Shown: in pieces, positions 1,187 to 56,181 of the stretch
Layout of the letters: the number at the start of each line of letters is the position of its first letter
Position numbering within the stretch: position 1 is the stretch's first letter
Origin: Proteobacteria bacterium UBA6156
GTDB taxonomy: Bacteria; Pseudomonadota; Alphaproteobacteria; UBA2136; UBA6156
Direction: 5' to 3'
Assembly: GCA_002422365.1 (NCBI GenBank)
Contig: DIUO01000031.1
Location: 11,263 to 75,262, forward strand
Length of the DNA: 64,000 nt
Translations under genes and position numbers: made by a program
Notes under the pieces: model-generated
Told to the model about the DNA's origin: nothing
What the model saw: only the letters and a program-made list of their open reading frames with translations
Databases searched by the model: none

Positions 1187-1320
1187 ATATTCGGAACCAG
1201 GAATTGGAATTTGGTGAGGCCTTTGGGGCTTTTTTTTATTATTTAGGTGCTTATATTTACAGGGAGTGCTGGGGAGGGGTGGTGCCTGGTGGGAGGTGTG
1301 GCATTTCGTAGAAAAAGATG

Positions 1321-1393
1321 GATCCCGGACAGGAAGCGGGGCCCGGCAAAAAATGAGATTTTTTGCCACCCGCTAACCTTCCGGGATGACGCC
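1321..1393 (+). repeat. short structured repeat (extended hairpin, B-type), copy 1
   Basis: GGATCCCGGACAGGAAGCGGGGCCCGGCAAAAAATGAGATTTTTTGCCACCCGCTAACCTTCCGGGATGACGCC. Outer stem TCCCGGA (1323-1329)/TCCGGGA (1380-1386). Inner stem GGCAAAAAAT/ATTTTTTGCC. Near-identical core to 41550-41609. Confidence 0.85.
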
Positions 1394-1454
1394 AAAACCT
1401 AATGCTGTGCTGGATTGGGGGCAGTTGTTTGCTTTGGATTTGGATGTTTGGAAT

Positions 1455-1649
1455 ATTTACGGGAAGTGCCGAGGATAGGTGAGGGTGGTGCCGGCACGGT
1501 GCATCCCTCTTTGTCTTGGCATTCCGTAGTGGGCATTGAGGGTGGGATAGGTTTTGTCTTGTATATTGGATATCCCGGATCGGGTTGGGGGCCCGCGATT
1601 TGTTCCAAATCGTACCCCGCCGCGTTCCGGGAAAGGTGCCGGGGAGGGG
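1455..1649 (+). repeat. long mosaic repeat element, copy I
   Basis: Starts ATTTACGGGAAGTGCCGAGGATAGGTGAGGGTGGTGCC. Contains the 60-nt hairpin 1573-1632. Ends TTCCGGGAAAGGTGCCGGGGAGGGGT. Alignable by eye with 9013-9255 and 54697-54867. Confidence 0.85.
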
Positions 1650-2156
1650 TTAGGAGCAGACTTTGGCGAGGTTGGCGAGGGCGTGCATGAGGCCGCGGGT
1701 GGAAAAGCTGCTTTCTAGTACAATAGTGCTGAGGATGGGTTGGTAGCGGACGATGAGGTAGGTGTCCTCTTTGAACATGTGGGCGGCGTTTTCGGCGTCG
1801 TAGGCCAGCACGATGTTGAAGCCGCGGCTGGCGCCTTCTATGGGGAGGGGGACGAGGATTTCGGAGACCTCGGCCGTGGGGGGCTGCACCAGCGGGGCGA
1901 TGAAGAGGGCGCGGAGATTGAGGATGTCGCGCTCGGGGATGCCGTCGGTGGTGAGGGTGAACTCGGCCGCGTTGGCGCGGATGGAGCAGGTGCGGGGTTC
2001 GATGAACCATTCGCCATAGGTGAGGGAAGGGGGCGGGCCGGGTTGGTAGGCTGCTGGTTTGGTGCCGCGCGGGGCCTTGGGGGCCGGAGGAGTGGTGGAG
2101 GTGCAGGCCGCAGCCAGCAGCGCTGCGGCGAGCAGCAGGCGGTTTTTGTTGTTCAT
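1650..2156 (-). CDS. lipoprotein, function unknown
   Basis: 168 aa. N-terminus MNNKNRLLLAAALLAAAC is a signal peptide with a lipobox Cys. The overlapping 254-aa ORF 1399..2163 is R/P/H-rich and rejected. Confidence 0.6.
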   Translation of the reverse strand: MNNKNRLLLAAALLAAACTSTTPPAPKAPRGTKPAAYQPGPPPSLTYGEWFIEPRTCSIRANAAEFTLTTDGIPERDILNLRALFIAPLVQPPTAEVSEILVPLPIEGASRGFNIVLAYDAENAAHMFKEDTYLIVRYQPILSTIVLESSFSTRGLMHALANLAKVCS

Positions 2157-3944: not shown

Positions 3945-4358
3945 ATGTCTTCGATGACCGCGTCCTCCCTGCCACAGCAAACCCCCCTGCAAGCTTCTTT
4001 GCAAACCCAGAATGCCAGCCAAGCCTTTGGTGCCCAACCCACTTTTGGTGCCCCCCGCCAGCTGAGCCCCCTTTACCGCCAGCGCGCAGAAGCCTTTAAC
4101 GAGAGCCTGCCCGCCACTGTGGACGCCTGCCTGAAGACCTATTTTAAAGACCTGAACGGCATGAGCCCGGCTGCTGGGATGTATGTGAAAGTGATTTCTC
4201 AGGTTGAAAAGCCGCTGATTGAACACGTGCTGCGTTATGTGCGCATTAACCAGGTGCGTGCTGCGAGCATTCTGGGCATCAACCGCAACACGCTGCGGAA
4301 GAAGATCCAGGCGCTGAATATTGATCTCGACAAGTTGATGAGCGATGTGGGTCATTAA
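3945..4358 (+). CDS. Fis-family DNA-binding protein with long N-terminal extension
   Basis: 137 aa. The C-terminus ...YVRINQVRAASILGINRNTLRKKIQALNIDL is a Fis-type HTH. The first ~60 aa are Q/S/P/A-rich. Confidence 0.8.
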   Translation: MSSMTASSLPQQTPLQASLQTQNASQAFGAQPTFGAPRQLSPLYRQRAEAFNESLPATVDACLKTYFKDLNGMSPAAGMYVKVISQVEKPLIEHVLRYVRINQVRAASILGINRNTLRKKIQALNIDLDKLMSDVGH

Positions 4359-4393
4359 GTGAACAGTGAACAGTGAACAGTGAACAGTGAATA
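4359..4393 (+). repeat. heptamer tandem array (GTGAACA)x4 + GTGAATA
   Basis: Counted unit by unit. Begins immediately after the fis-like stop (TAA 4356-4358). Followed by the terminator hairpin 4395-4418. Confidence 0.95.
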
Positions 4394-4394
4394 G

Positions 4395-4418
4395 GGTGCC
4401 CTTAGGGGCGCTTTTTTT
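4395..4418 (+). terminator. intrinsic terminator after fis-like gene
   Basis: GGTGCCC-ttag-GGGCGCT (7 bp including 2 G-U pairs) followed by T7. Confidence 0.6.
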
Positions 4419-4516
4419 GCGTGCGGTATGCGGGTGCTTGTGTGGTGGGCGCGGGGGGTGGCGTTTTGCGGGATTTCTGGCAGAGTGGGCGTTGTTAATG
4501 ACTCGAGGATGACGGC

Positions 4517-7006
4517 TTGGCCGCAAAGACGACGAAACCAAAGGTGACAAAAGCTAAGACAGGGGCACGCAAGGCCTCCGCTGCGGCTGTGGCGGCTGAG
4601 GTGAAGGGTGAGGCTTTCAATACTCCTCGGGCCAAAAAGCAAGAAAGCCGGGCAGGGGTAAGCCCGCGCAGCGAGGCGTTGTTTGAGCCCCTGAGCCATG
4701 ACGACACCATCGCTGCCGTGTGGCCAGTGGCCGGAGACCGCCGCAGCCCCCGGCGCGGGCACCACCCGATTTACCAGTGGCTGCGCTGGGGCTTTGTGGC
4801 CACCGTGGCGCTGCTGCTGCTGGGGCTGGTGGGTGTGATGGTTGTAGCGACCCGGGGCGCAGATTTGAGCGGGCCTGCGTATTTGGCGCTGATTAACATT
4901 AACATTGTGGGGCTGGTGCTGCTGCTGCTGTATGTGGTGAGGCGCGTGGTGGTGATGCTGCTGGACCGCCGTGGGCGGTTGCGCGGGAGCCGCTTGCATT
5001 ACCGGGTGCTGGGGATTTTTGTGTTTCTGGCGGTGCTGCCTGCGGTAGGGGTGGGGAGCACGGCGATTTATTTGCTCAACCAGGGGATTGAAAGCTGGTT
5101 TGCCACCAAAGTGAGTGTGGCGCTGGAAGGGGGGCGCCAGGTAGCGGAAGGGTATTTGAAAGAAAGCGGGCGCGGCCTGCAAGGCGAAGTGCTGGCCATG
5201 AGCCGCGACCCCGCCTGGCAAATGCCAGCGCTGCTGCTGAGCCAAGACACCATGGGCGTGTGGCTGCGCCAGCAGCTTAACCTGAAACAGCTGGAAGAAC
5301 TGGCCGTGGTGGACAGTGATGGCCAGGTGATGGTGAGCGGGAGTGGGTTGCGGTTTTTGATTTTACCCAGTGAGGTGGTGCAGTATTTGCAGAATGCGGA
5401 ATTCCAGCGGGCGAATGGGGGTGTGGTGTGGTCGGAAGTGTTTAGGCAGGCCGATGGGCGCCGCCTGCTGGCGGTGGCACCCCTGAAAGCCGGGCTGTGG
5501 CTGGTGGCGCAGAAGAGCCTGAATAATGAGATGCTGGAGAACATTGGCGCGACGGCCAGTGCCTATAATGATTATGCCGACATGATGGAGCAGCGCAGCC
5601 GGATACGCCACGTGGTGACCCTGTTTATGCTGGTGATGCTGGGCAGCACGGTGACCGCCGCCGTGTGGGCGGGGATAAGATTGGCCAACAAGATTGTGAA
5701 GCCGGTAACCGAGCTGGTGCACGGCACCAACCGTGTGAGTGCGGGTGACCTGACCGTAAGGTTGGAGCCGCGTGACGATGGTGAGCTGGGGGTGCTGACG
5801 CAGGCTTTTAACCGGATGACGGTTCAGCTGGCCAGCAACCGCGATTTGCTGGAGCGCAAAAACAATGAGCTGGATGAGCGCAGGCGCTTTATTGAGGCGA
5901 TTTTGACCGGGGTGAGCGCTGGTGTGGTGGCGGTGGATGATGAAGGATTAGTGCGTGTGGCCAACCAGAGTGCGATTGTCATGCTGAAGCTGACGCTGGG
6001 CACCAAGCTGAGCAAACAGGTGCCCGAATTGGCCGACGTGGTGCAAGACGTGGGGCAGGGCAACCTGATTGGCCGCAGTGTGGTGCAAAAAGAGCTGAAA
6101 GTGACCCTTGCGGAGGGTGATACGCGCACGCTGCTGGTGCGGTTGGTTCCGCAAGGGGCAATTGGGCTGGCGGGGATGCGCGGTGTGGTGCTGACCTTTG
6201 ATGACATTACGCCGCTGATTGGGGCCCAGCGCCTGGCGGCATGGCAAGATGTGGCGCGGCGGCTGGCGCATGAGATTAAGAACCCGCTGACGCCGATTCA
6301 GCTAAGTGCCGAGCGTTTGAAGCGGCGGTATTTGAAGCAGATTGGCACCGATGCGGAGCTGTTTGCGCAGCTGTGCGACACCATAGTGCAGCAAAGCGAA
6401 GAAATGCGGCGCATGACCAATGAATTTAGCGATTTTGCCCGCATGCCGCAGGCGCAAATGCAAGATGAAAACCTGATTGAGCTGGTGGACAGTGTAGTGG
6501 CGTTGCAGCGGGCGCGGGGAGGGATTGAATTTGTAACTGATTACGCCGTGGCGGTGGCGATGGTGAAAGCTGATAAGGGGCAGATAACGCGGGTGTTCAC
6601 GAACCTGCTGGAGAATGCGTACAATGCCATTGCTGAAAGGGAAGGCACAAATGTGCCACAGGGACGGGTCGAAATTGTTGCGAGGGAGCAACAAGCTGGT
6701 ATGCTGTTGCTTGAAATACGCGATAACGGCCGGGGCTTGCCGGACCATGTGGAGGTTGAAAGTTTGTTTGACCCCTATGTGACCACCCGCAAAGGCGGCA
6801 CCGGGCTGGGTTTGGCCATTGTGAAGCGCGTGATGGACGAACACGGCGGCACCGTAAGGCTGCTGCGGCGGAAAGGCGGAGGAACCACGGTTGAGATGGG
6901 GTTCCCGCTCGCTGAACCGACCCTGGCCGCCACCCACGTTGACGCGGGCCATAAGGCCAACAACAAGGAGATAAAGACCGATGAGCCAACCGACGACACC
7001 AGGTAG
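4517..7006 (+). CDS. ntrY: sensor histidine kinase NtrY-like
   Basis: 829-aa ORF starting at TTG 4517 (the true start is uncertain and may be downstream). TM segments, HAMP/PAS region, H-box HEIKNPLTPIQLSAERL, and ATPase motifs DNGRGL and GTGLGLAIV. Confidence 0.85.
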   Translation: MAAKTTKPKVTKAKTGARKASAAAVAAEVKGEAFNTPRAKKQESRAGVSPRSEALFEPLSHDDTIAAVWPVAGDRRSPRRGHHPIYQWLRWGFVATVALLLLGLVGVMVVATRGADLSGPAYLALININIVGLVLLLLYVVRRVVVMLLDRRGRLRGSRLHYRVLGIFVFLAVLPAVGVGSTAIYLLNQGIESWFATKVSVALEGGRQVAEGYLKESGRGLQGEVLAMSRDPAWQMPALLLSQDTMGVWLRQQLNLKQLEELAVVDSDGQVMVSGSGLRFLILPSEVVQYLQNAEFQRANGGVVWSEVFRQADGRRLLAVAPLKAGLWLVAQKSLNNEMLENIGATASAYNDYADMMEQRSRIRHVVTLFMLVMLGSTVTAAVWAGIRLANKIVKPVTELVHGTNRVSAGDLTVRLEPRDDGELGVLTQAFNRMTVQLASNRDLLERKNNELDERRRFIEAILTGVSAGVVAVDDEGLVRVANQSAIVMLKLTLGTKLSKQVPELADVVQDVGQGNLIGRSVVQKELKVTLAEGDTRTLLVRLVPQGAIGLAGMRGVVLTFDDITPLIGAQRLAAWQDVARRLAHEIKNPLTPIQLSAERLKRRYLKQIGTDAELFAQLCDTIVQQSEEMRRMTNEFSDFARMPQAQMQDENLIELVDSVVALQRARGGIEFVTDYAVAVAMVKADKGQITRVFTNLLENAYNAIAEREGTNVPQGRVEIVAREQQAGMLLLEIRDNGRGLPDHVEVESLFDPYVTTRKGGTGLGLAIVKRVMDEHGGTVRLLRRKGGGTTVEMGFPLAEPTLAATHVDAGHKANNKEIKTDEPTDDTR

Positions 7007-8342: not shown

Positions 8343-8350
8343 GCAGATAA

Positions 8351-8378
8351 GTGAACAGGTAACAGTGAACAGTGAACA
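8351..8378 (+). repeat. heptamer tandem array GTGAACA-GGTAACA-GTGAACA-GTGAACA
   Basis: Starts 8 nt after the ntrX stop (TAG 8340-8342). Followed by the terminator hairpin 8382-8403. Confidence 0.9.
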
Positions 8379-8381
8379 GGA

Positions 8382-8419: not shown

Positions 8420-8965
8420 ATGATGCGGACGGTGAGTTTTGATGGGGCGGGGGTGCAGGTGCTGACGCTGGTTTATGGTCGGGATGAGCAGGGGCGTGTG
8501 TTGATGCTGGAGCGGGGGGCGCATAAGACATTTTTGCCCGGATGGTTTGTGGGCGTTGGGGGGAAGGTTGAGGCTGGTGAGAATGTGTTTGATGCCGCTG
8601 CGCGGGAATTTGAGGAAGAAACAGGGTTGCGGGCGGTGGGTTTGAGCCTGCGCGGGAGTTACACCTTTATGACTGAGACGGCGGACAACCGTTGTGGGGT
8701 GATTTATTTGTTTGAGTGTGCGGTGGAAGGTGATTTTGTGGCCGAGGTAGCCGACGGCACGCTGCATTGGTTGACGGTGGCGGAATTGTTGGCGCATGAC
8801 AAGGTGATGCCTGACCACAAGGTGTGGATGGGGCAGATTTTTACGAACAGCACCCATTTTGCGTGTGTGGGGAGTTGGAAGCCGCCGGTGGAGGGGACGC
8901 TGAATGTGGGGGAGGAGTGGGCGGATAGCCGGGGGTATTTTGAGGGGTTAGAAGTTAGAGGTTAG
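8420..8965 (+). CDS. NUDIX hydrolase
   Basis: Nudix box GGKVEAGENVFDAAAREFEEETGL. ATG 8420 chosen because the ORF-track start 8372 lies inside the heptamer array and terminator. The last codons and the stop are encoded by the GTTAGAR array. Confidence 0.8.
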   Translation: MMRTVSFDGAGVQVLTLVYGRDEQGRVLMLERGAHKTFLPGWFVGVGGKVEAGENVFDAAAREFEEETGLRAVGLSLRGSYTFMTETADNRCGVIYLFECAVEGDFVAEVADGTLHWLTVAELLAHDKVMPDHKVWMGQIFTNSTHFACVGSWKPPVEGTLNVGEEWADSRGYFEGLEVRG

Positions 8966-8981
8966 AGGTTAGAAGTTAGAT
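8947..8981 (+). repeat. heptamer tandem array GTTAGAA-GTTAGAG-GTTAGAG-GTTAGAA-GTTAGAT
   Basis: Five units. The NUDIX stop TAG 8963-8965 lies inside unit 3, and the last residues ...LEVRG are encoded by the repeat. Confidence 0.95.
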
Positions 8982-9012
8982 TGGGTATGTGGGTTGGAGA
9001 GGTTTGTGGGGG

Positions 9013-9255
9013 ATTTACGGGACGTGCTGGGGAGGGGTGAAGGTGGTGCCTGGTCGGAGGTTTGCTCAAAAAATAAGATTTTTTGGCAAACCTTACCGCA
9101 AGGCACGGTGGGGCAATTATTGCTTGGGAAATGTTGAGTGGGCTTTGGGTGGGAAGGTTGGATGTGTTCGTGCTTGGATTTTCCGGATCCCGGATACGGG
9201 CGGGGGCCCCACATTTGTTCCAAATTTGACCCCGCCGCGTTCCGGGAATCGGTGC
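9013..9255 (+). repeat. long mosaic repeat element, copy II (carries a nested hairpin)
   Basis: Starts ATTTACGGGACGTGCTGGGGAGGGGTGAAGGTGGTGCC. Hairpin 9188-9247 (…GGCGGGGGCCCCACATTTGTTCCAAATTTGACCCCGCC…). Ends TTCCGGGAATCGGTGC. Confidence 0.85.
9046..9106 (+). repeat. short structured hairpin nested inside long element II
   Basis: GTGCC[TGGTCGGAGGTTTGCTCAAAAAATAAGATTTTTTGGCAAACCTTACCGCAA]GGCAC. The bracketed 51 nt (9051-9101) are absent from the homologous site in copy I, which reads GTGCCGGCAC (1488-1497). Confidence 0.8.
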
Positions 9256-9282
9256 TTTGATTAAGGGGGTGTTTTGAGGATT

Positions 9283-11674: not shown

Positions 11675-11716
11675 GTGTTTGGTGTTTAGTGTTTGGTGTT
11701 TTGGTGTTTAGTTTTG
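11675..11716 (+). repeat. heptamer tandem array GTGTTTG/A (about 6 units, partly degenerate)
   Basis: GTGTTTG GTGTTTA GTGTTTG GTGTTTT GGTGTTTA GTTTTGG. Lies between the coxIII start (11664) and the stop of the upstream - strand ORF (complement of 11708-11710). Confidence 0.85.
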
Positions 11717-12046
11717 GGGGGGGTGGACGAGGGAGGGGTCGTCGTATTCCGGCAGGCGGAGGCCTTTGTAGTCGTATTGGATGCGGGTGCCGAATTCGCG
11801 GACGTAGTCTGTCCCCCGCGTGTGGCCGGGGCCGCCGAGGTAGGTGATGAGGATAAAGAAGTAAACCAGCGCGCCGCCGATGCCGATGATGAGCATCTTC
11901 ATGAACACGGCGTAGGTTTGGGTGTAGTCGGCGTGCAAAGCGGCTTTGTTGTAGTGCAGTTTTTCGTGCAATTTTTCTGGTGCGTGCACGGCGGCGGGAG
12001 CCTTGGCGGCAGGTTTTTTACTGCTGGACTTGGTAGGTTGCGCCAT
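11708..12046 (-). CDS. single-pass membrane protein, unknown function
   Basis: ATG 12046 follows a strong AAGGAGG. K/A-rich N-terminus, one TM (FMKMLIIGIGGALVYFFILITYL). The stop TAA lies inside the heptamer array 11675-11716. Directly upstream of coxIII. Confidence 0.5.
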   Translation of the reverse strand: MAQPTKSSSKKPAAKAPAAVHAPEKLHEKLHYNKAALHADYTQTYAVFMKMLIIGIGGALVYFFILITYLGGPGHTRGTDYVREFGTRIQYDYKGLRLPEYDDPSLVHPPQN

Positions 12047-12167: not shown

Positions 12168-12215
12168 CGGGTGGGGGTTTTTAGCTTTGGTCATGAAGGG
12201 AAATTAGCATGGGAA

Positions 12216-12243
12216 GTGAACAGTGAACAGTGCACAGTGAACA
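12216..12243 (+). repeat. heptamer tandem array GTGAACA-GTGAACA-GTGCACA-GTGAACA
   Basis: In the divergent spacer between the - strand small ORFs/cox cluster and prfB. Not adjacent to a stop codon. Confidence 0.9.
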
Positions 12244-12313
12244 GGGGGATGATGTTTGCGGTGGGGGGGGATTTCTGGTAGGTTTTGCGCCATTGTTAAT
12301 AAAGGACACAGTT

Positions 12314-16570: not shown

Positions 16571-17022
16571 GATTGGGGATGCTGTGTGTGGCCCTGGTGC
16601 TGCTGGCAGGGTGTGGGGAGGCGCAGGATGGGCCGCCCAAGCTGCCGCCCGAGATATCGCAAGGCCAACCCCAAGACCTGCCGCGTGTGGCGCTGCAAGT
16701 GGGGACTGTGAAGGTGCAGGCCCAAGTGGCCGACGACGATGACGAGCGGGCCAAGGGGCTGATGTTTGTGCGTGCCATGCCGGAAGATGAAGGCATGCTG
16801 TTTGTGTGGCCGGAGAAGGCGGAGCGGAGTTTTTGGATGCGGAATACGTATATTCCACTGGATTTGCTGTTTATTGATGGGCGGCGGATTGTGCGGATTG
16901 TGCAGGGGGTGCCGCTGGATGAGAGTGCGTTACCTTCTGGCCAGCCGGTGGATAAGGTGCTGGAGATGAATGCCGGGTGGGCTGCGCGGAGGGGGGTTAA
17001 GGTGGGGGATTTAGTGTTTTAG
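16567..17022 (+). CDS. DUF192 family protein (lipoprotein signal)
   Basis: MRLGMLCVALVLLAGC lipobox. GMLFVWPEKAERSFWMRNTYIPLDLLFID matches the DUF192 core pattern. Confidence 0.75.
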   Translation: MRLGMLCVALVLLAGCGEAQDGPPKLPPEISQGQPQDLPRVALQVGTVKVQAQVADDDDERAKGLMFVRAMPEDEGMLFVWPEKAERSFWMRNTYIPLDLLFIDGRRIVRIVQGVPLDESALPSGQPVDKVLEMNAGWAARRGVKVGDLVF

Positions 17023-17055
17023 TGTTTGGTGTTTTTGTTTTGTTTTTAGTTTTTT
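17014..17055 (+). repeat. degenerate GTGTTTN heptamer/octamer array
   Basis: GTGTTTTA GTGTTTG GTGTTTTT GTTTTGTTTTTAGTTTTTT. Contains the DUF192 stop (TAG 17020-17022) and the dsbD stop (complement of 17046-17048). Confidence 0.75.
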
Positions 17056-26522: not shown

Positions 26523-26765
26523 ATGGCTGCTAAAGGTGTGAAGAATTTGCAGGAGGCCTTTTTGGCGCACCTGGCCAAAGGCCATGCGCCTGTGACGGTG
26601 TTTTTAACCAATGGGGTTAAACTTTCCGGGAATATCACCTACGTGGACGCCGATGCTCTGACGCTGGCCCGCGATGGGGTGACGCAATTGATATTCAAGC
26701 ACGCCATTGCGACTGTGATGCCGCAGGATGCGTTTAGCATTTATGATTTGATGGGCGGCGAATAG
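26523..26765 (+). CDS. hfq: RNA chaperone Hfq
   Basis: ATG 26523 within ORF 26472..26765. NLQEAFLAHLAKGHAPVTVFLTNGVKLSGNITYVD...LARDGVTQLIFKHAIATVMP is an Sm1/Sm2 core of alphaproteobacterial type. Confidence 0.95.
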   Translation: MAAKGVKNLQEAFLAHLAKGHAPVTVFLTNGVKLSGNITYVDADALTLARDGVTQLIFKHAIATVMPQDAFSIYDLMGGE

Positions 26766-26806
26766 TGCTTGGTGTTTAGTGTTTCGTATTTAGTGTTTCG
26801 TGTTTG
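26765..26806 (+). repeat. heptamer tandem array GTGCTTG-GTGTTTA-GTGTTTC-GTATTTA-GTGTTTC-GTGTTTG
   Basis: Six units. The first G is the last base of the hfq stop (TAG 26763-26765). Confidence 0.9.
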
Positions 26807-33188: not shown

Positions 33189-33223
33189 TTTAGAAGTTAG
33201 AAGTTAGAGGTTAGAGGTTAGAC
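33189..33223 (+). repeat. heptamer tandem array TTTAGAA-GTTAGAA-GTTAGAG-GTTAGAG-GTTAGAC
   Basis: Five units. Begins immediately after the TGA 33186-33188 of the GH3-like gene. Confidence 0.95.
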
Positions 33224-36570: not shown

Positions 36571-36610
36571 GTGTTTTGGTGTTTTCGTTTTTCGTGATTT
36601 CGTTTTTTTT
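36571..36610 (+). repeat. degenerate GTGTTTY/GTTTTTC array
   Basis: GTGTTTTG GTGTTTTC GTTTTTC GTGATTTC GTTTTTTTTT. Lies 25 nt upstream of the glyA start. Confidence 0.6.
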
Positions 36611-40356: not shown

Positions 40357-40408
40357 ACATATGTACCTTTTTGGTAAGGAAAAGCCTTTGGCTTTGGATT
40401 TTAAGGAA

Positions 40409-40513
40409 GCCTCCGGCGGGCCTCCCGGCGGGGGTGGGCCCCGGATAGGTGGCGGGTCCCGGCTTTTGTTCCAAAAGCCACCCGCCTACCTTCCGGGGTG
40501 ACAGGGCCCCACC
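40409..40513 (+). repeat. short structured repeat in the accB-accC spacer
   Basis: The first 42 nt (40409-40450) are identical to 41509-41550. Then GGCGGGT-CCC-GGCTTTTG-TTC-CAAAAGCC-ACCCGCC, ending ACCTTCCGGGGTGAC...GGGCCCCACC. Confidence 0.9.
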
Positions 40514-40561
40514 AATGTTGCTGCATGGCATAGTGCTCGCCAATATATACATTAAGATTGC

Positions 40562-41408: not shown

Positions 41409-41508
41409 GGGCGGATTTTAAGCCAGATAGGTAGGTGGGGCAAGCAACCTGCCGGTTTGGCGGGCGGGGGTGTGGTTTATTTATAGCTGGAAGGTGATTT
41501 GATTATTT

Positions 41509-41609
41509 GCCTCCGGCGGGCCTCCCGGCGGGGGTGGGCCCCGGATAGGTAGCGGGGCCCGGCAAAAAATGGGATTTTTTGCCACCCACTAACCTTCCGG
41601 GGTGACGCC
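41509..41609 (+). repeat. short structured repeat upstream of ORF 41073..41408/accB
   Basis: GCCTCCGGCGGGCCTCCCGGCGGGGGTGGGCCCCGGATAGGT, then AGCGGGG-CCC-GGCAAAAAAT-GGG-ATTTTTTGCC-ACCCACT, ending AACCTTCCGGGGTGACGCC. Confidence 0.9.
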
Positions 41610-41661
41610 AACCCACGATTTGGTGCTTATTAGCTCGTAATTCTTAATAAATGGTTAGGTT

Positions 41662-44077: not shown

Positions 44078-44914
44078 ATGCAAATATCAAACGTGGTGCC
44101 CGGATCGGCCTGGAATGCATTGAATAATACTAACTATAATCTCTTGCATAAGGTTGTAAAAGCATTTGGTGAAAATCCTTACCATGATACTTTTATGAAT
44201 AATAAGCGGATGCATGTTTTTTGCCTTGCAGCAGAAAAGGGTAATTTGCGCGCCCTTTCGATCTTTCTTACGGAAGGGAAGTGGAATCCCAACGCTTTGT
44301 ATGGCGATGTGTTTCCCCTGCATATGGCTGCATTCGGCGGGCAGACCAAGGCGGTTGAATTACTCGTTCAATTCGGTGCTGATATTCACATTCGGACTGC
44401 CAAAGGACGCAATGCTGTTTTTGCGGCGTCGATTGGTGGTGCTGCAGATACGCTGCGTGCGATCGTAGCTCTAGGTGGTGACATAAACACAAAGGATGCT
44501 GACGGAGGTTCGGCTTTGCTGGGAGCTGCCGCAATGGGGCATACTGAGGCTTTCCGAGTTATTGCGGAACTAGGTGGTGATATTAATGCGCGTACATTTA
44601 AATCCGGTATCTCGGCACTGTTTTTGGCTGCATTTGATGGTCACCTTGAGACCTTAAAAGCAGCTATTGAATTAGGGGGGGACATTAACTGCAAGGTTAA
44701 TGATGGTAGAACGCCGGTATTGGCTGCACTCATTCAGGGGCACTTCGAATGCGTGTACTGGCTACTTGAGCAAGGTGCTGAAACGCATCATCGTACCGTT
44801 AAAGGTAACGACTTAAGAAAACTAGCTAATTTCCTCCGAGCCCGAGAATCTAATGATATGAGGATTCGATCTTACAGTCGAGTAATCGACTTATTAGATA
44901 CGTTGGGTTCTTGA
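44078..44914 (+). CDS. ankyrin repeat protein
   Basis: 278 aa. About six 33-aa repeats with LGGDIN...G.SAL..AA..GH pattern. ATG 6 nt after AGGAGA. AT-rich relative to its flanks. Confidence 0.85.
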   Translation: MQISNVVPGSAWNALNNTNYNLLHKVVKAFGENPYHDTFMNNKRMHVFCLAAEKGNLRALSIFLTEGKWNPNALYGDVFPLHMAAFGGQTKAVELLVQFGADIHIRTAKGRNAVFAASIGGAADTLRAIVALGGDINTKDADGGSALLGAAAMGHTEAFRVIAELGGDINARTFKSGISALFLAAFDGHLETLKAAIELGGDINCKVNDGRTPVLAALIQGHFECVYWLLEQGAETHHRTVKGNDLRKLANFLRARESNDMRIRSYSRVIDLLDTLGS

Positions 44915-49767: not shown

Positions 49768-51064
49768 GAATTTGGCAGCCTGGATACGTTGGCCCGTGAT
49801 TTGCGGTGCCCTGTTGCTGATTATAGCCGTGGTGGTGCCACCGCTGAGCGGCAACACCGAAACCAGTGCCGATGCCCCAGGCCTGGTAACCAACATGCGT
49901 GTGGGCCAGGACGGTGGCCGCACCCGCGTGGTGTTTGAGTTTACGGAAAGCACCCGTGAGAGCGATTTTAATTACAGATGGTTTACGCTGCCCAAGCCTG
50001 CGCGGGTGGTGATTGATTTTGAAGATGATATTGCTTTTAAGGATTCGCCCAGCCTGTTGAAGCTGCCCGGAGACGGCTTGGCGGAGGGCCTGCGCGCAGG
50101 GCGCTTTAGGCCCGGCACGGTGCGGATGGTGCTGGATTTGCGGGCGCAGGGGCGCGTGAATGTGTTTAGTATACCTGCACGTGGCGGCATGGGCCCAAGG
50201 TTGGTGATTGACCTTGTGAAATTGAAGCCCGGCCAGAAGCCGACCGATGTGCCTCCGCCGCTGGATGTGGTGACGCAAGGTGAAGCCCCGGCTGTGCACC
50301 CCCAGACCTTGGATGAAGAACCCGCGCCCGTGGTGCCGCCGCAAGTGACGCGCGACATGAGCGGCAACAAACGCCAACACGCCGTGGTGGTGCTGGATGC
50401 CGGACACGGCGGTGTGGACCCCGGCGGGTGCAGCAAGGTGATTAACCTGTGCGAAAAAGGCCTGACGCTGGAAATGGTGAAGCTGGTGAGGGAGCGCCTG
50501 CGCAGCGACCGCATTGAAGTGGTGCTGACGCGCGAGACCGATGTGTTTATACCTTTGGCCGAGCGCCCGCGCATTGCCCAGCGCGCCGGTGCCGACCTTT
50601 TTGTGAGCCTGCATGCGGATATTCACCCCACCAAAACCGATGTGAAGGGGGCCACCGTATATATGGTGAGTGAAAAAGCCAGTGACCGCGAAGCCGCCCG
50701 CCTGGCCAACAGCGAAAACGACCGCGACGTGATGGCTGGTGTGGCATTGGCGAATGAAAGCCGCGAGGTGCAGAATATTTTGATTTCTCTGGTACAGCGC
50801 GACACGCTGAACAGCTCTACCTATTTAGCCAGAAGTATTCTGGACGACTTGGATAAGTTTACGGAAGTGCGCAAAAAGGATGTGCTGTATGCCGGGTTTA
50901 GAGTGCTGAAAAGCCCAGATGTGCCGAGTGTGCTGGTGGAGATGGGGTATTTGTCGAACCCGACGGAGGCGCGAAAACTTTCTAATGCATTATACCGTAA
51001 GCGCTTGGCCGATGCGATTGCCATGGGGATACGGAATTATGTGGAGAAGCATGTGCATTATTAG
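49757..51064 (+). CDS. amiC: N-acetylmuramoyl-L-alanine amidase (AMIN + Amidase_3)
   Basis: ATG 49757 within ORF 49739..51064. AMIN-like RVVFEF...VVIDF. Catalytic VVVLDAGHGGVDPG, SLHADI, GYLSNP. Confidence 0.9.
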   Translation: MRSENLAAWIRWPVICGALLLIIAVVVPPLSGNTETSADAPGLVTNMRVGQDGGRTRVVFEFTESTRESDFNYRWFTLPKPARVVIDFEDDIAFKDSPSLLKLPGDGLAEGLRAGRFRPGTVRMVLDLRAQGRVNVFSIPARGGMGPRLVIDLVKLKPGQKPTDVPPPLDVVTQGEAPAVHPQTLDEEPAPVVPPQVTRDMSGNKRQHAVVVLDAGHGGVDPGGCSKVINLCEKGLTLEMVKLVRERLRSDRIEVVLTRETDVFIPLAERPRIAQRAGADLFVSLHADIHPTKTDVKGATVYMVSEKASDREAARLANSENDRDVMAGVALANESREVQNILISLVQRDTLNSSTYLARSILDDLDKFTEVRKKDVLYAGFRVLKSPDVPSVLVEMGYLSNPTEARKLSNALYRKRLADAIAMGIRNYVEKHVHY

Positions 51065-51099
51065 TGTTTAGTTTTTAGTGTTTGGTGTTTAGTTTTTTA
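51064..51099 (+). repeat. heptamer tandem array GTGTTTA-GTTTTTA-GTGTTTG-GTGTTTA-GTTTTTTA
   Basis: The first G is the last base of the amidase stop (TAG 51062-51064). Confidence 0.9.
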
Positions 51100-54266: not shown

Positions 54267-54653
54267 ATGAGATTGCCCCCCAACCACCCCGCGCTGGAGT
54301 GGAGTTTTGTGACCGCCGGCGGCCCCGGCGGCCAGCATGTGAACAAGGTGGCCACCGCCGTGCAGCTGCGCGTGCATGTGGCCAAGCTGGGGCTGCCGGA
54401 GTGGGCGGAGGCGAAGCTGCTGGCCAAGGCGGGGAAGGAGGGGGTGCTGGTGATTTTGGCACGGCGGTTTAAATCTCAGATACTTAATCGGAATGATGCG
54501 TTAGCGCGTTTGGAAGTGATGATTGCGAAGGCGTTGCATGTGCCGAAGGTGCGGCGGGCGACCAAGCCGACGCGGGCGAGTGGGGAGCGGCGGTTGGTGG
54601 CGAAGACGGTGCGGGCGGGGGTGAAGAAGTTGCGGGGACGGGTGGTGGAGTAG
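54267..54653 (+). CDS. arfB: alternative ribosome-rescue factor ArfB (peptidyl-tRNA hydrolase)
   Basis: ATG 54267 within ORF 54216..54653. GGPGGQHVNKVATAV GGQ motif. Basic C-terminal tail. 128 aa. Confidence 0.85.
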   Translation: MRLPPNHPALEWSFVTAGGPGGQHVNKVATAVQLRVHVAKLGLPEWAEAKLLAKAGKEGVLVILARRFKSQILNRNDALARLEVMIAKALHVPKVRRATKPTRASGERRLVAKTVRAGVKKLRGRVVE

Positions 54654-54684
54654 TGTTTTGGTGTTTAGTCTTTAGTTTTTTTTA
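54653..54684 (+). repeat. heptamer tandem array GTGTTTTG-GTGTTTA-GTCTTTA-GTTTTTTTTA
   Basis: The first G is the last base of the arfB stop (TAG 54651-54653). Directly followed by the long mosaic element 54697-54867. Confidence 0.85.
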
Positions 54685-54696
54685 GGATTGGGGCTG

Positions 54697-54867
54697 ATTT
54701 CCGGGAAGTGCTGGTGAGGGGTAGGGGGCGACGGTGCTTACCTGTCTGCTTTGGTATTCTCAAGTGACGGTTGTTAGAGGGTGCTTGTATTTTCCAGATC
54801 CCGGGTCTGGGCGGGGGCCCCAAATTTGTTCCAAATTTGACCCCGCCGCAGCCCGGGAAACGGTGCC
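54697..54867 (+). repeat. long mosaic repeat element, copy III
   Basis: Starts ATTTCCGGGAAGTGCTGGTGAGGGGTAGGGGGCGACGGTGC. Hairpin ~54799-54858 (GGCGGGGGCCCCAAATTTGTTCCAAATTTGACCCCGCC). Ends CCCGGGAAACGGTGCC. Confidence 0.85.
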
Positions 54868-54897
54868 GAGGAGAGAATGGTGATGTGTTAAACAGCT

Positions 54898-56181
54898 TTA
54901 GGTGGTAAGCAGGGTTTGGAGATAGGGGATGATGTTTGCGGCTTCGACCTGGGCTTGCTGGCGGGTGGCGAAGGTGCGGATGGTGGCGGAGTCGGGAGTA
55001 TCGGCCACGATGCCGTAGAGAATGCCGCGTTTGTCGGCGGCCATGAAGTGTTGACCGGGGGATTTATCTCCCAACGCGAGTTCGCAAGCGATACCCGCCT
55101 TGCGGATTTGCTGGCAGAGGGCCGGGGCGGCGGCGCCGGTGACGATGAGCTGGGCGGGGGTGGCGGGCATGGCGTTGTAGGGCGGTTGGTCCATGAGCCA
55201 GGCGGCCAGGCGCGAAATGCCGATGCTGAGGCCGACGCCGGGAAGGTTGCGCTCGGAGAGAGAGGCGGCGAGGTTGTCGTAGCGGCCGCCGGAGCAGATG
55301 GAGCCGAGCTCTGGGGCGGTGTGGAGTTTGGTTTCTAATACCGTGCCGGTGTAGTAATCCAGCCCACGGGCGATGGCGAGGTCGGCCACAATGTTGCTGG
55401 TGCCGCCGGTGAGGCTGTCGAGGGTGGTGAGGACTTCTTTCAGCTCGTTCAGGCCGGTTTGGGCGAGGGGGGTGAGGCCGGTGAGTTCGTTCAGGTTGGT
55501 GGTGCGGGTTTGGTTTATCAGTTGTTGCACCTTGGCTTGCGGATTGATGGCGGTGAGGCGCGCGAGGGCGTCTTCGTCGCGGATTTTTTCGAGGTCGTCT
55601 ATGACTTTAATGGCGGCGTAGGTTTGTGCGCCTTCGGTGAAGCCCGCGCCTTGCACGAGGCCGGTGAGCAGCTTGCGGTTGTTGACGCGCATGGTGAAGG
55701 GGGTGCCTTCCGGCAGGATGGCGACCAAAGCGTCGTGGGCGGCGGCGATGACTTCGGCGTCGGCTTCCAGCGGCAGGGAGGCGTCGCCGACGACATCGAG
55801 GTCGAACTGGTGGAATTGGCGGTAGCGGCCGAGTTGGGGGCGTTCTCCGCGCCAGACAGGTTGGCATTGATAGCGGCGGTAGGGAAAGCTGAGGCTGCCG
55901 TAATTTTGCGCGACGTAGCGGGCCATGGGGACGGTGAGGTCGAAGCGGAGGGCGATGTCTTTGTCGCCGTCGCCGTCTTCTGCTGCCAGGCGGCGGAGGC
56001 CGTAGACTTCTTTGCTGTCTATGCCTTTGGAAACGAGAGTTTCGATGCGTTCGACGGCGGCGGTCTCGAGCGGGACATAGCCGTAGGTTTGGTAAATGGC
56101 TTCTATGCTGCGGATGATGTGGTTGAAGGCCAGTTGCTCGGAGGGGAGGTACTCGGGGAAGCCGGAAATGTTGGTTTTCAT
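54898..56181 (-). CDS. hisS: histidine--tRNA ligase
   Basis: 427 aa. FPEYLP, class II motifs (YRRYQCQPVWRGERPQLGRYRQFHQFDLD, GGRYDNL), C-terminal anticodon-binding-like domain. Confidence 0.88.
   Translation of the reverse strand: MKTNISGFPEYLPSEQLAFNHIIRSIEAIYQTYGYVPLETAAVERIETLVSKGIDSKEVYGLRRLAAEDGDGDKDIALRFDLTVPMARYVAQNYGSLSFPYRRYQCQPVWRGERPQLGRYRQFHQFDLDVVGDASLPLEADAEVIAAAHDALVAILPEGTPFTMRVNNRKLLTGLVQGAGFTEGAQTYAAIKVIDDLEKIRDEDALARLTAINPQAKVQQLINQTRTTNLNELTGLTPLAQTGLNELKEVLTTLDSLTGGTSNIVADLAIARGLDYYTGTVLETKLHTAPELGSICSGGRYDNLAASLSERNLPGVGLSIGISRLAAWLMDQPPYNAMPATPAQLIVTGAAAPALCQQIRKAGIACELALGDKSPGQHFMAADKRGILYGIVADTPDSATIRTFATRQQAQVEAANIIPYLQTLLTT

Follow-up and report, generated by a model that had tools for sequence, protein, structure and literature searches.

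REP-like repeats are common, and the way in which they spread is understood for very few of them. In Escherichia coli, a conserved tetranucleotide, GTAG, is located 5' of the foot of the REP hairpin, and the stabilisation of mRNA is a role of some REPs. To our knowledge, most of the known REP-like families occur in both orientations, as inverted pairs. RIME and Sm-repeats represent mosaic intergenic palindromic repeats of Alphaproteobacteria, and attC sites are recombined as folded single strands. By definition, a REP is an imperfect palindrome of 30-40 nt (PMC3333891). For IS200/IS605 elements, strand-specific transposition, subterminal hairpins, and targeting of the lagging-strand template have been described (PMC5027513, PMC3333891, PMC6006769).

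The repeats presented here constitute a new family of dispersed intergenic hairpin repeats from an uncultured alphaproteobacterium, and the family is larger than first described. It was studied in a stretch of 64,000 nucleotides from Proteobacteria bacterium UBA6156 (contig DIUO01000031.1), referred to as the window, in which six elements (I to VI) were found. Like REP, BIME, and REPIN sequences, the elements occur in many copies, are strictly intergenic, and form imperfect palindromes whose mismatches or bulges are conserved (PMC3333891). They are likewise often located at the 3' ends of genes and between convergent genes, form mosaics of hairpins and linker motifs with several subfamilies per genome, and keep the complementarity of their stems while the sequence differs. 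However, the family is not a formal member of the REP/BIME group, as size, GTAG box, and inverted pairing all disagree. Its main hairpin (hairpin A) measures 58-65 nt and comprises three tiers, compared to the 30-40 nt of a REP, and its 5' flanks (GGAT, ATAT, GGGC, AGAT, CGGC, TTGT, and TAAC) contain neither GTAG nor any invariant tetranucleotide. The tandem copies (elements IV and I, and those of loci L041 and L069) are all direct, none being arranged in inverted pairs, and a single orientation, tied to the replication strand, is kept throughout. Furthermore, neither a RAYT gene nor a REPtron was seen in the DNA examined.

Copies in the Window and Their Modular Architecture

The preliminary description of this DNA reported three copies of a structured repeat in the same orientation, corresponding to elements I, II, and III. 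Their coordinates, their location on the + strand, and their common layout were confirmed. Folding also bore out the hairpin that had been proposed for each of them (1574-1631, 9189-9246, and 54800-54857, approximately 58 nt), with energies between -34.6 and -40.3 kcal/mol and z-scores between -2.7 and -5.1. The parts named for this hairpin, being the outer stem CCCGGR/YCCGGG, the G-run/C-run stem, the (G)CCC bulge on the 5' arm, the A/T inner stem, and the TTC loop, are all present, and the compensatory change of the inner stem between copies I and III is real. The two ORFs of 91 aa (1415..1690 and 8989..9264) exist and represent nothing but the repeat read in frame. The reprise of the 5' box at the end of each copy held in part: it is clear in element I (1625-1650), weaker and partial in element III, and absent from element II, which carries another tail.

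A pattern for the 5' box, ATTTMCGGGAMGTGCYGRKGAGGGGT, matched the window four times at no more than three mismatches (1255, 1455, 9013, and 54697) and yielded 0 matches in 100 shuffles; the box at 1255 was absent from the earlier set. The fixed-frame motif CCCGGR-N8-GGGKCCC-N19/23-ACCC-N9-CCGGG was found six times in the window, on the + strand every time, with starts at 1324, 1574, 9189, 40440, 41540, and 54800. Three of these hairpins (1324-1385, 40440-40497, and 41540-41601) were new and raised the number of hairpin A copies in the window to six. The covariance-model search that had been suggested for this repeat did retrieve further copies: the model R1, comprising 20 copies and applied to the window with filters off, recovered the six hairpins A with 53-75 bits (E = 3e-11 to 4e-17) and no further site in the window. 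Reverse reading of the window sites achieved 10-27 bits only, and across the window and the relatives the reverse orientation scored 10-33 bits, exclusively at sites of forward matches. Since the reverse reading scores far lower, the orientation of hairpin A is well defined. A seventh hairpin A of the same strain, again on the + strand, is located 3.8 kb upstream of the window.

Hairpin A is an imperfect hairpin with three stem tiers. Its outer stem of 6-8 bp (CCCGGR/YCCGGG) is followed by one unpaired base on the 5' arm, and the middle stem of approximately 11 bp covaries and features one bulged base on the 3' arm. A C-rich bulge of 3-4 nt is positioned on the 5' arm, and the apical A/T-rich stem-loop is exchangeable. 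What had been described as a middle section of copy II folds into another hairpin of comparable design, hairpin B (9042-9108, -31.7 kcal/mol). The base of hairpin B (GTGCCTGG/CAAGGCAC) is conserved and its middle stem covaries; the bulge on the 5' arm contains C, and the apical stem is of the A/T kind. A deletion has reduced hairpin B to its base in copies I, III, and IV. The full composite is ordered as G-rich 5' box, hairpin B, spacer, hairpin A, and tail; composite or mosaic elements are approximately 110-270 bp long, and composite copies bear an imperfect direct repeat of approximately 25 nt at both ends. Two types of 3' tails were distinguished, namely GTGACRCC..CCCCA.. and ..GGTGCTTTGATT... 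An intrinsic terminator was considered for these hairpins and rejected, as no T-run follows hairpin A or B, the tails reading GTGAC... or AAAGGTGCC....

All six elements are encoded on the + strand. Element II (9013..9265) is the most complete composite, consisting of the 5' box (9013-9039), the intact hairpin B (9042-9108), a spacer, hairpin A (9189-9246), and the tail CGGTGCTTTGATTAAGG; it scored 67.7 bits with R1 and 16.5 bits for hairpin B. Element I (1455..1650) is the most degenerate copy (52.9 bits) and features the 5' box at 1455-1481, the palindrome GTGCCGGCAC (1489-1498) as the remaining base of hairpin B, a spacer, hairpin A at 1574-1631, and the reprise at 1625-1650. Element III (54697..54877; -40.3 kcal/mol, z = -5.1, 70.8 bits) possesses the 5' box (54697-54723), lacks hairpin B by deletion, and continues with hairpin A (54800-54857) and a partial reprise (54851-54877). 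The additional element IV (1241..1410; hairpin A with -37.6 kcal/mol, z = -5.9, 70.5 bits) is composed of the 5' box at 1255-1281, a remnant of hairpin B at approximately 1282-1300, a hairpin A of the 23-nt apical type (1324-1385), and the tail ATGACGCCAAAACC from 1386 onwards.

Elements V and VI have neither a 5' box nor hairpin B and share another 5' flank of 31 nt. This flank contains the tandem 12-mer GCCTCC(C)GGCGG x2, located directly 5' of hairpin A at 40409-40432 and 41509-41532. Element V (40409..40515; -46.2 kcal/mol, z = -6.0, 73.2 bits) is built from the tandem 12-mer plus GGGTGGGC, hairpin A (40440-40497), and the tail GTGACAGGGCCCCACC. Element VI (41509..41625; 75.4 bits) consists of the 31-nt flank of element V, a hairpin A of the 23-nt apical type (41540-41601), and the tail GTGACGCCAACCCACGATTTGGTGCTT. 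Copy V combines the outer stem of copy VI with an apical stem of the TTC-loop type, indicating that the modules are exchangeable.

Genomic Context and Evidence for Insertion

The window represents an ordinary alphaproteobacterial chromosome encoding, among others, NtrY/NtrX, RF2, COX3, HflX, SHMT, AccB/AccC, RNase E, PBP1A, HisS, and ThyX; genes for tRNA or tmRNA were not detected in it. All window copies are intergenic and flanked by unrelated housekeeping genes. Elements IV and I occupy one site between convergent genes (1187-1649), the reprise of element I abutting the stop codon of the minus-strand gene 1650-2156. Element II is located between a NUDIX gene and the subsequent Mpg gene, both on the + strand (8966-9273), and element III between the convergent genes arfB (ending at 54653) and hisS (ending at 54898), i.e., at 54654-54897. 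Two sites lie among minus-strand genes, namely that of element V (40357-40561) between accC (start 40356) and accB (end 40562), and that of element VI (41409-41661) between an M48 peptidase gene (end 41662) and an ORF of 111 aa (start 41408).

Elements V and VI are insertions, as the corresponding sites are empty in syntenic relatives. The relatives SDYJ01 (AccC 92% identical) and VAFM01 (87%) exhibit the same gene order, RNase E ... M48 peptidase, small ORF, accB, accC. Their accB-accC spacer measures 34 nt and 12 nt, respectively, vs. 205 nt in the window, and the spacer downstream of the M48 peptidase gene 87 nt and 109 nt vs. 253 nt; in 34 kb of their sequence, no hairpin A was found. Alignments of the empty and filled sites are too diverged to place the element ends to the base. 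Near hisS-arfB, hairpin A was also absent from relatives whose HisS is 85%, 72%, and 69% identical (21 kb each), and the hisS-arfB spacer of these relatives has a different content.

Five samples contain the source strain at 100% identity. Among the Logan contigs, three (L101, L102, and L103) stop inside hairpin A, at window position 54839, and a further one (L109) at 1374; the element behaves as an assembly-breaking repeat or palindrome. An ENA contig originating from another sample (L100) matches the window at 100% identity between 59181 and 54781 and, continuing downwards, diverges inside element III. The composite at 4402-4814 of this contig is a different and fuller one, in which hairpin B is intact and the long spacer contains a duplicated GTTCCGGCCTTCGCCGG motif. 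The divergence at 54781 suggests a structural polymorphism, or else a recombination or rearrangement that may have occurred at the element.

The location of most copies just past the stop codon of a co-oriented gene, often between convergent genes, and the high stability of the hairpins (down to -46 kcal/mol) would also be in agreement with cis-acting 3'-UTR hairpins, serving the upstream genes as terminators that lack a U-tract or as mRNA-stabilising barriers. Such a hairpin, being a near-palindrome, would serve either way round, leaving the orientation of 22 out of 22 informative copies (see below) and the asymmetric bulges unexplained. Moreover, element IV is already preceded by a canonical terminator (1216-1240), termination at element V, between accB and accC, would be harmful, and relatives manage without elements at the same sites. 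We therefore regard this explanation as unlikely for the family as such; a 3'-UTR role could exist as a secondary function.

Two other features of the window were recorded. Tandem arrays of heptamers (AGTGAAC, GTTAGAA, and GTGTTTG/TTAGTGT) occur on the + strand only, in one orientation, at 4358-4391, 8350-8379, 8947-8980, 11675-11717, 12215-12244, 17010-17055, 26763-26805, 33190-33222, 36571-36608, 51061-51097, and 54656-54681. The units carry TGA or TAG, so that three or more copies produce a stop codon in all three frames, and the start of at least eight arrays coincides with the stop codon of a + strand gene or is only a few nucleotides away from it; two of the arrays are located directly 5' of elements II and III. 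In addition, an ankyrin-repeat protein with six Pfam hits of the Ank family is encoded amid housekeeping genes (44078-44914, + strand). Bacterial ankyrin-repeat proteins are often tied to a host-associated lifestyle.

Occurrence of the Family in Other Genomes

A loose pattern scan of a genome collection retrieved at least 97 stretches, most of those listed being chance hits in high-GC genomes. Among the matches listed, 13 represent true relative hairpins from four MAGs labelled as Proteobacteria or Alphaproteobacteria (RI_491, D8_MAG_00060, CG_4_10_14_0_8_um_filter_53_9, and LLD_154), which possess the same three-tier hairpin with other stems. The metagenome contig L099 features the same hairpin architecture, and a scan of metagenomes with a tighter pattern returned two loci only, one of them duplicating locus L090. 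The invariance of CCCGG, GGG, CCC, and ACCC among the pattern-derived copies was imposed by the search pattern and says nothing on conservation. The model R1 added two copies from relatives that had not been selected by a pattern, and neither of them has lost the single bulge on the 3' arm, the 5' bulge of 3-4 nt, (A/G)CC(C), or the unpaired base on the 5' arm.

The composite order recurs in RI_491 (L040), in D8_MAG_00060 (L088), and at a second locus of the source species (L100). Seven copies were counted in approximately 75 kb of the strain studied here and ten in the RI_491 loci examined, all of them intergenic. In relatives, too, the copies neighbour unrelated housekeeping genes and are often situated between genes that converge. 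One copy of D8_MAG_00060 (L030) is nearly identical to element VI, including the 31-nt flank with its tandem 12-mer, and adjoins a HhH-GPD glycosylase gene, not an M48 peptidase gene; a single 12-mer unit is present in L088. Near-identical or subfamily groups across loci and genomes comprise IV, VI, and L109; VI and L030; and L040, L065, L069, and L079. At least five genomes thus harbour subfamilies of this repeat, at intergenic sites that are unrelated to each other.

Viral contigs yielded 0 matches. Compared to RIME and Sm-repeats, the family exhibits no sequence similarity: blastn searches with elements V and II at E up to 0.01 found no match in a database of 72,556 plasmids, which presumably includes the rhizobial megaplasmids. 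We are also not aware of any report of an orientation locked to one strand for the RIME and Sm-repeat families.

Two small genes for GIY-YIG nucleases (PF01541) were observed close to hairpins of relatives, in RI_491 (L041, 1636-1995, minus strand) and in CG_4_10_14_0_8_um_filter_53_9 (L090, 336-632, + strand), at distances of 64 nt and 35 nt from hairpin A, respectively. Their products share 33% identity with each other, their orientation with respect to the hairpin differs, and no homologue is encoded in the window. The nucleases are possible candidates for a structure-specific enzyme. In RI_491, furthermore, two paralogous genes of PF05635 (bAvd-like, '23S rRNA intervening sequence protein'; L068, 2547-2909, and L079, 5571-6017) are located no more than 3 kb from copies of hairpin A; this proximity is probably a coincidence.

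Orientation of the Elements Relative to Replication

The GC skew of the window is +0.25 overall and uniform, ranging between 0.15 and 0.43 per 2 kb. The + strand is further biased for GGGNAGGG (25:1) and GCTGGTGG (30:6) and encodes approximately 60% of the genes. Taken together, these features identify the + strand as leading-strand sequence. In the related MAGs, GC skew values between 0.15 and 0.41 were observed.

The form of hairpin A with the C-rich bulge on its 5' arm was found on the G-rich strand in 22 out of 22 informative copies (11 contigs, five genomes), judged by the sign of the local GC skew, while contig L099 disagrees and, with a skew near zero, is uninformative. The orientation is locked to the G-rich strand. 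As elements V and VI and the copy L090a sit among genes of opposite direction, the lock follows replication rather than transcription. The mutational bias would produce the opposite of a C-rich bulge on the G-rich strand, and the skew accordingly did not create the orientation of the bulge. The G-rich strand corresponds to the sequence of the lagging-strand template (PMC5027513), where the 'top strand' of IS200/IS605 elements undergoes excision and insertion (PMC5027513, PMC3333891, PMC6006769).

The strand lock could stem from selection instead of the insertion mechanism. As a rival explanation, the elements would be sites of host chromosome architecture or replication, their orientation being kept by selection, e.g., as signals for priming or restart on the lagging-strand template or as carriers of the KOPS-like GGGNAGGG. 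The strict tie between orientation and replication strand is what such sites would display, copies occur roughly every 10 kb, and the 5' boxes hold GGGGAGGG or GGGTAGGG in a window with the 25:1 skew of GGGNAGGG. Close relatives with the same gene order and an equal skew, however, do without the elements, and elements V and VI as well as many copies of the relatives have no 5' box. The subfamilies and the near-identical copies in different contexts also resemble the outcome of an amplification, and host sites of this kind are considered very unlikely. KOPS as a general cause of the strand lock was rejected, because copies without a 5' box are locked as well.

Base Pairing and Covariation of Hairpin A

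The structural alignment of hairpin A (A3) is gap-free and comprises 520 cells at 26 pairs. Pairing was found in 93.8% of the 520 cells, compared to 68% in shuffles and at most 61% with the partners slid. Double changes were detected in 17 of the 26 pairs and in 127 cells vs. 40 expected, and RNAalifold independently predicted the same fold. Covariation is real, yet it does not by itself indicate RNA. Only three G-U cells and five C-A or A-C cells (representing G-U on the other strand) were counted, which indicates Watson-Crick pairing on both strands. Such nearly pure Watson-Crick pairing fits a DNA hairpin better than an RNA transcribed from a G/T-rich strand.

The preliminary description had named structured ncRNA genes beside a BIME/REP-type mosaic and had assigned the repeat to no named family. 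The latter still applies, as a scan against Rfam 15 resulted in 0 matches at gathering scores and four weak matches at E up to 5, none of them at the elements. The former is not favoured. Highly expressed RNA genes are often co-oriented with replication, and + strand genes for structured small RNAs, their hairpins being kept as RNA by compensatory evolution, would account for the strong covariation, the fixed bulge geometry, the composite layout kept across three genomes, and the co-orientation of every copy with the leading strand. Expression signals belonging to the elements did not emerge, as scans revealed neither a sigma-70-like promoter nor a T-run terminator, and no conservation was seen upstream of the 5' box. 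G-U pairs are nearly absent despite the G/T-rich strand. Many copies consist of hairpin A alone or show precise deletions of hairpin B, two copies lie antisense to the minus-strand genes around them (inside accB-accC in one case), and the orientation is linked to replication. Moreover, the element interrupts assemblies in the manner of a repeat. Small-RNA genes are thus an improbable source of the pattern.

A Probable Mobile DNA Hairpin and Its Relation to Known Elements

The BIME/REP-type mosaic proposed at the outset is supported, as the elements are dispersed, intergenic, modular, divided into subfamilies, and missing at the orthologous sites of close relatives. Probably, the family represents a lineage-specific, non-autonomous, dispersed intergenic mobile repeat of REP/BIME-like type. 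Its functional form would be a hairpin that folds in the single-stranded DNA of the lagging-strand template, and a structure-specific enzyme would recognise it through its bulges. Excision, copying, and insertion would take place there, similar to the 'top strand' transposition of IS200/IS605 elements or to the RAYT-driven spread proposed for REPs. By analogy with these systems, the strand lock may point to single-strand transposition by an enzyme of the Y1/HUH type.

With IS200/IS605 elements and their non-autonomous derivatives (PATEs), the family shares structured hairpins on one 'top' strand only and the lack of terminal inverted repeats, and its two same-strand hairpins (B and A) are placed near the two ends of the composite. 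The orientation bias fits an activity on the lagging-strand template, as in IS200/IS605 (PMC5027513), with this template as the presumed active strand. IS200/IS605 elements carry similar hairpins at their left and right ends, in contrast to the dissimilar sequences of hairpins A and B, and many copies of the family consist of hairpin A plus tail only. Neither tnpA nor tnpB was found in the DNA examined. IS200/IS605 elements insert sequence-specifically, 3' of a short target that is not duplicated, and no conserved target or cleavage tetranucleotide was identified in the flanks examined; the left flanks of hairpin A are only vaguely A/T-rich or GATT-like, with no clear common motif. In addition, the imperfect direct repeat at the composite ends is not predicted by a peel-and-paste mechanism.

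Pfam analysis of most window ORFs of at least 100 aa did not reveal a transposase, and 24 ORFs beside the hairpins of relatives were assigned to housekeeping functions, apart from the two small GIY-YIG genes. A tblastn search for Y1 transposases in approximately 230 kb, covering a small part of each genome, gave none below E = 1; with its IS200 TnpA and E. coli RAYT queries, it was a weak search.

Integron attC sites and classical MITEs were also compared. As in attC sites, the hairpins are long and imperfect, their extrahelical bases and their base are conserved while the apical part varies, and the start of the unit repeats the end of the 3' arm of the hairpin. An assignment to attC was ruled out by the missing RYYYAAC/GTTRRRY core sites (the outer stem being CCCGGR/YCCGGG), cassette array, and integrase, and copies of the family, unlike attC sites, are scattered singly among housekeeping genes. 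A classical MITE was excluded as well, since neither hairpin A nor the composites are flanked by a direct duplication, and the composite ends are imperfect direct, not inverted, repeats.

The proposed mobile DNA hairpin does not account for two observations, namely the direct repeats at the composite ends and the exchange of entire stem sequences from copy to copy. The family could also belong to an undescribed class of single-stranded DNA elements that are restricted to the lagging-strand template and handled by an enzyme other than Y1 (e.g., GIY-YIG, Slx1/YhbQ-like), or that have been co-opted as oriented fork signals. Stem replacement would then result from the re-synthesis of one arm from the other in each cycle and not from stepwise compensatory mutation. 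We assign a low probability to such a class and retain the REP/BIME-like mobile repeat as the probable reading.

On the practical side, the elements break assemblies and give rise to spurious ORFs of approximately 90 aa, which gene callers will annotate. The hairpin plus its tail also provides a defined substrate in the hunt for the responsible enzyme, within an uncultured lineage of Alphaproteobacteria whose GC skew is extreme. If the strand lock holds true, it would be among the clearest genomic evidence that folded single-stranded DNA at the replication fork is the form in which REP-like repeats are made or moved.
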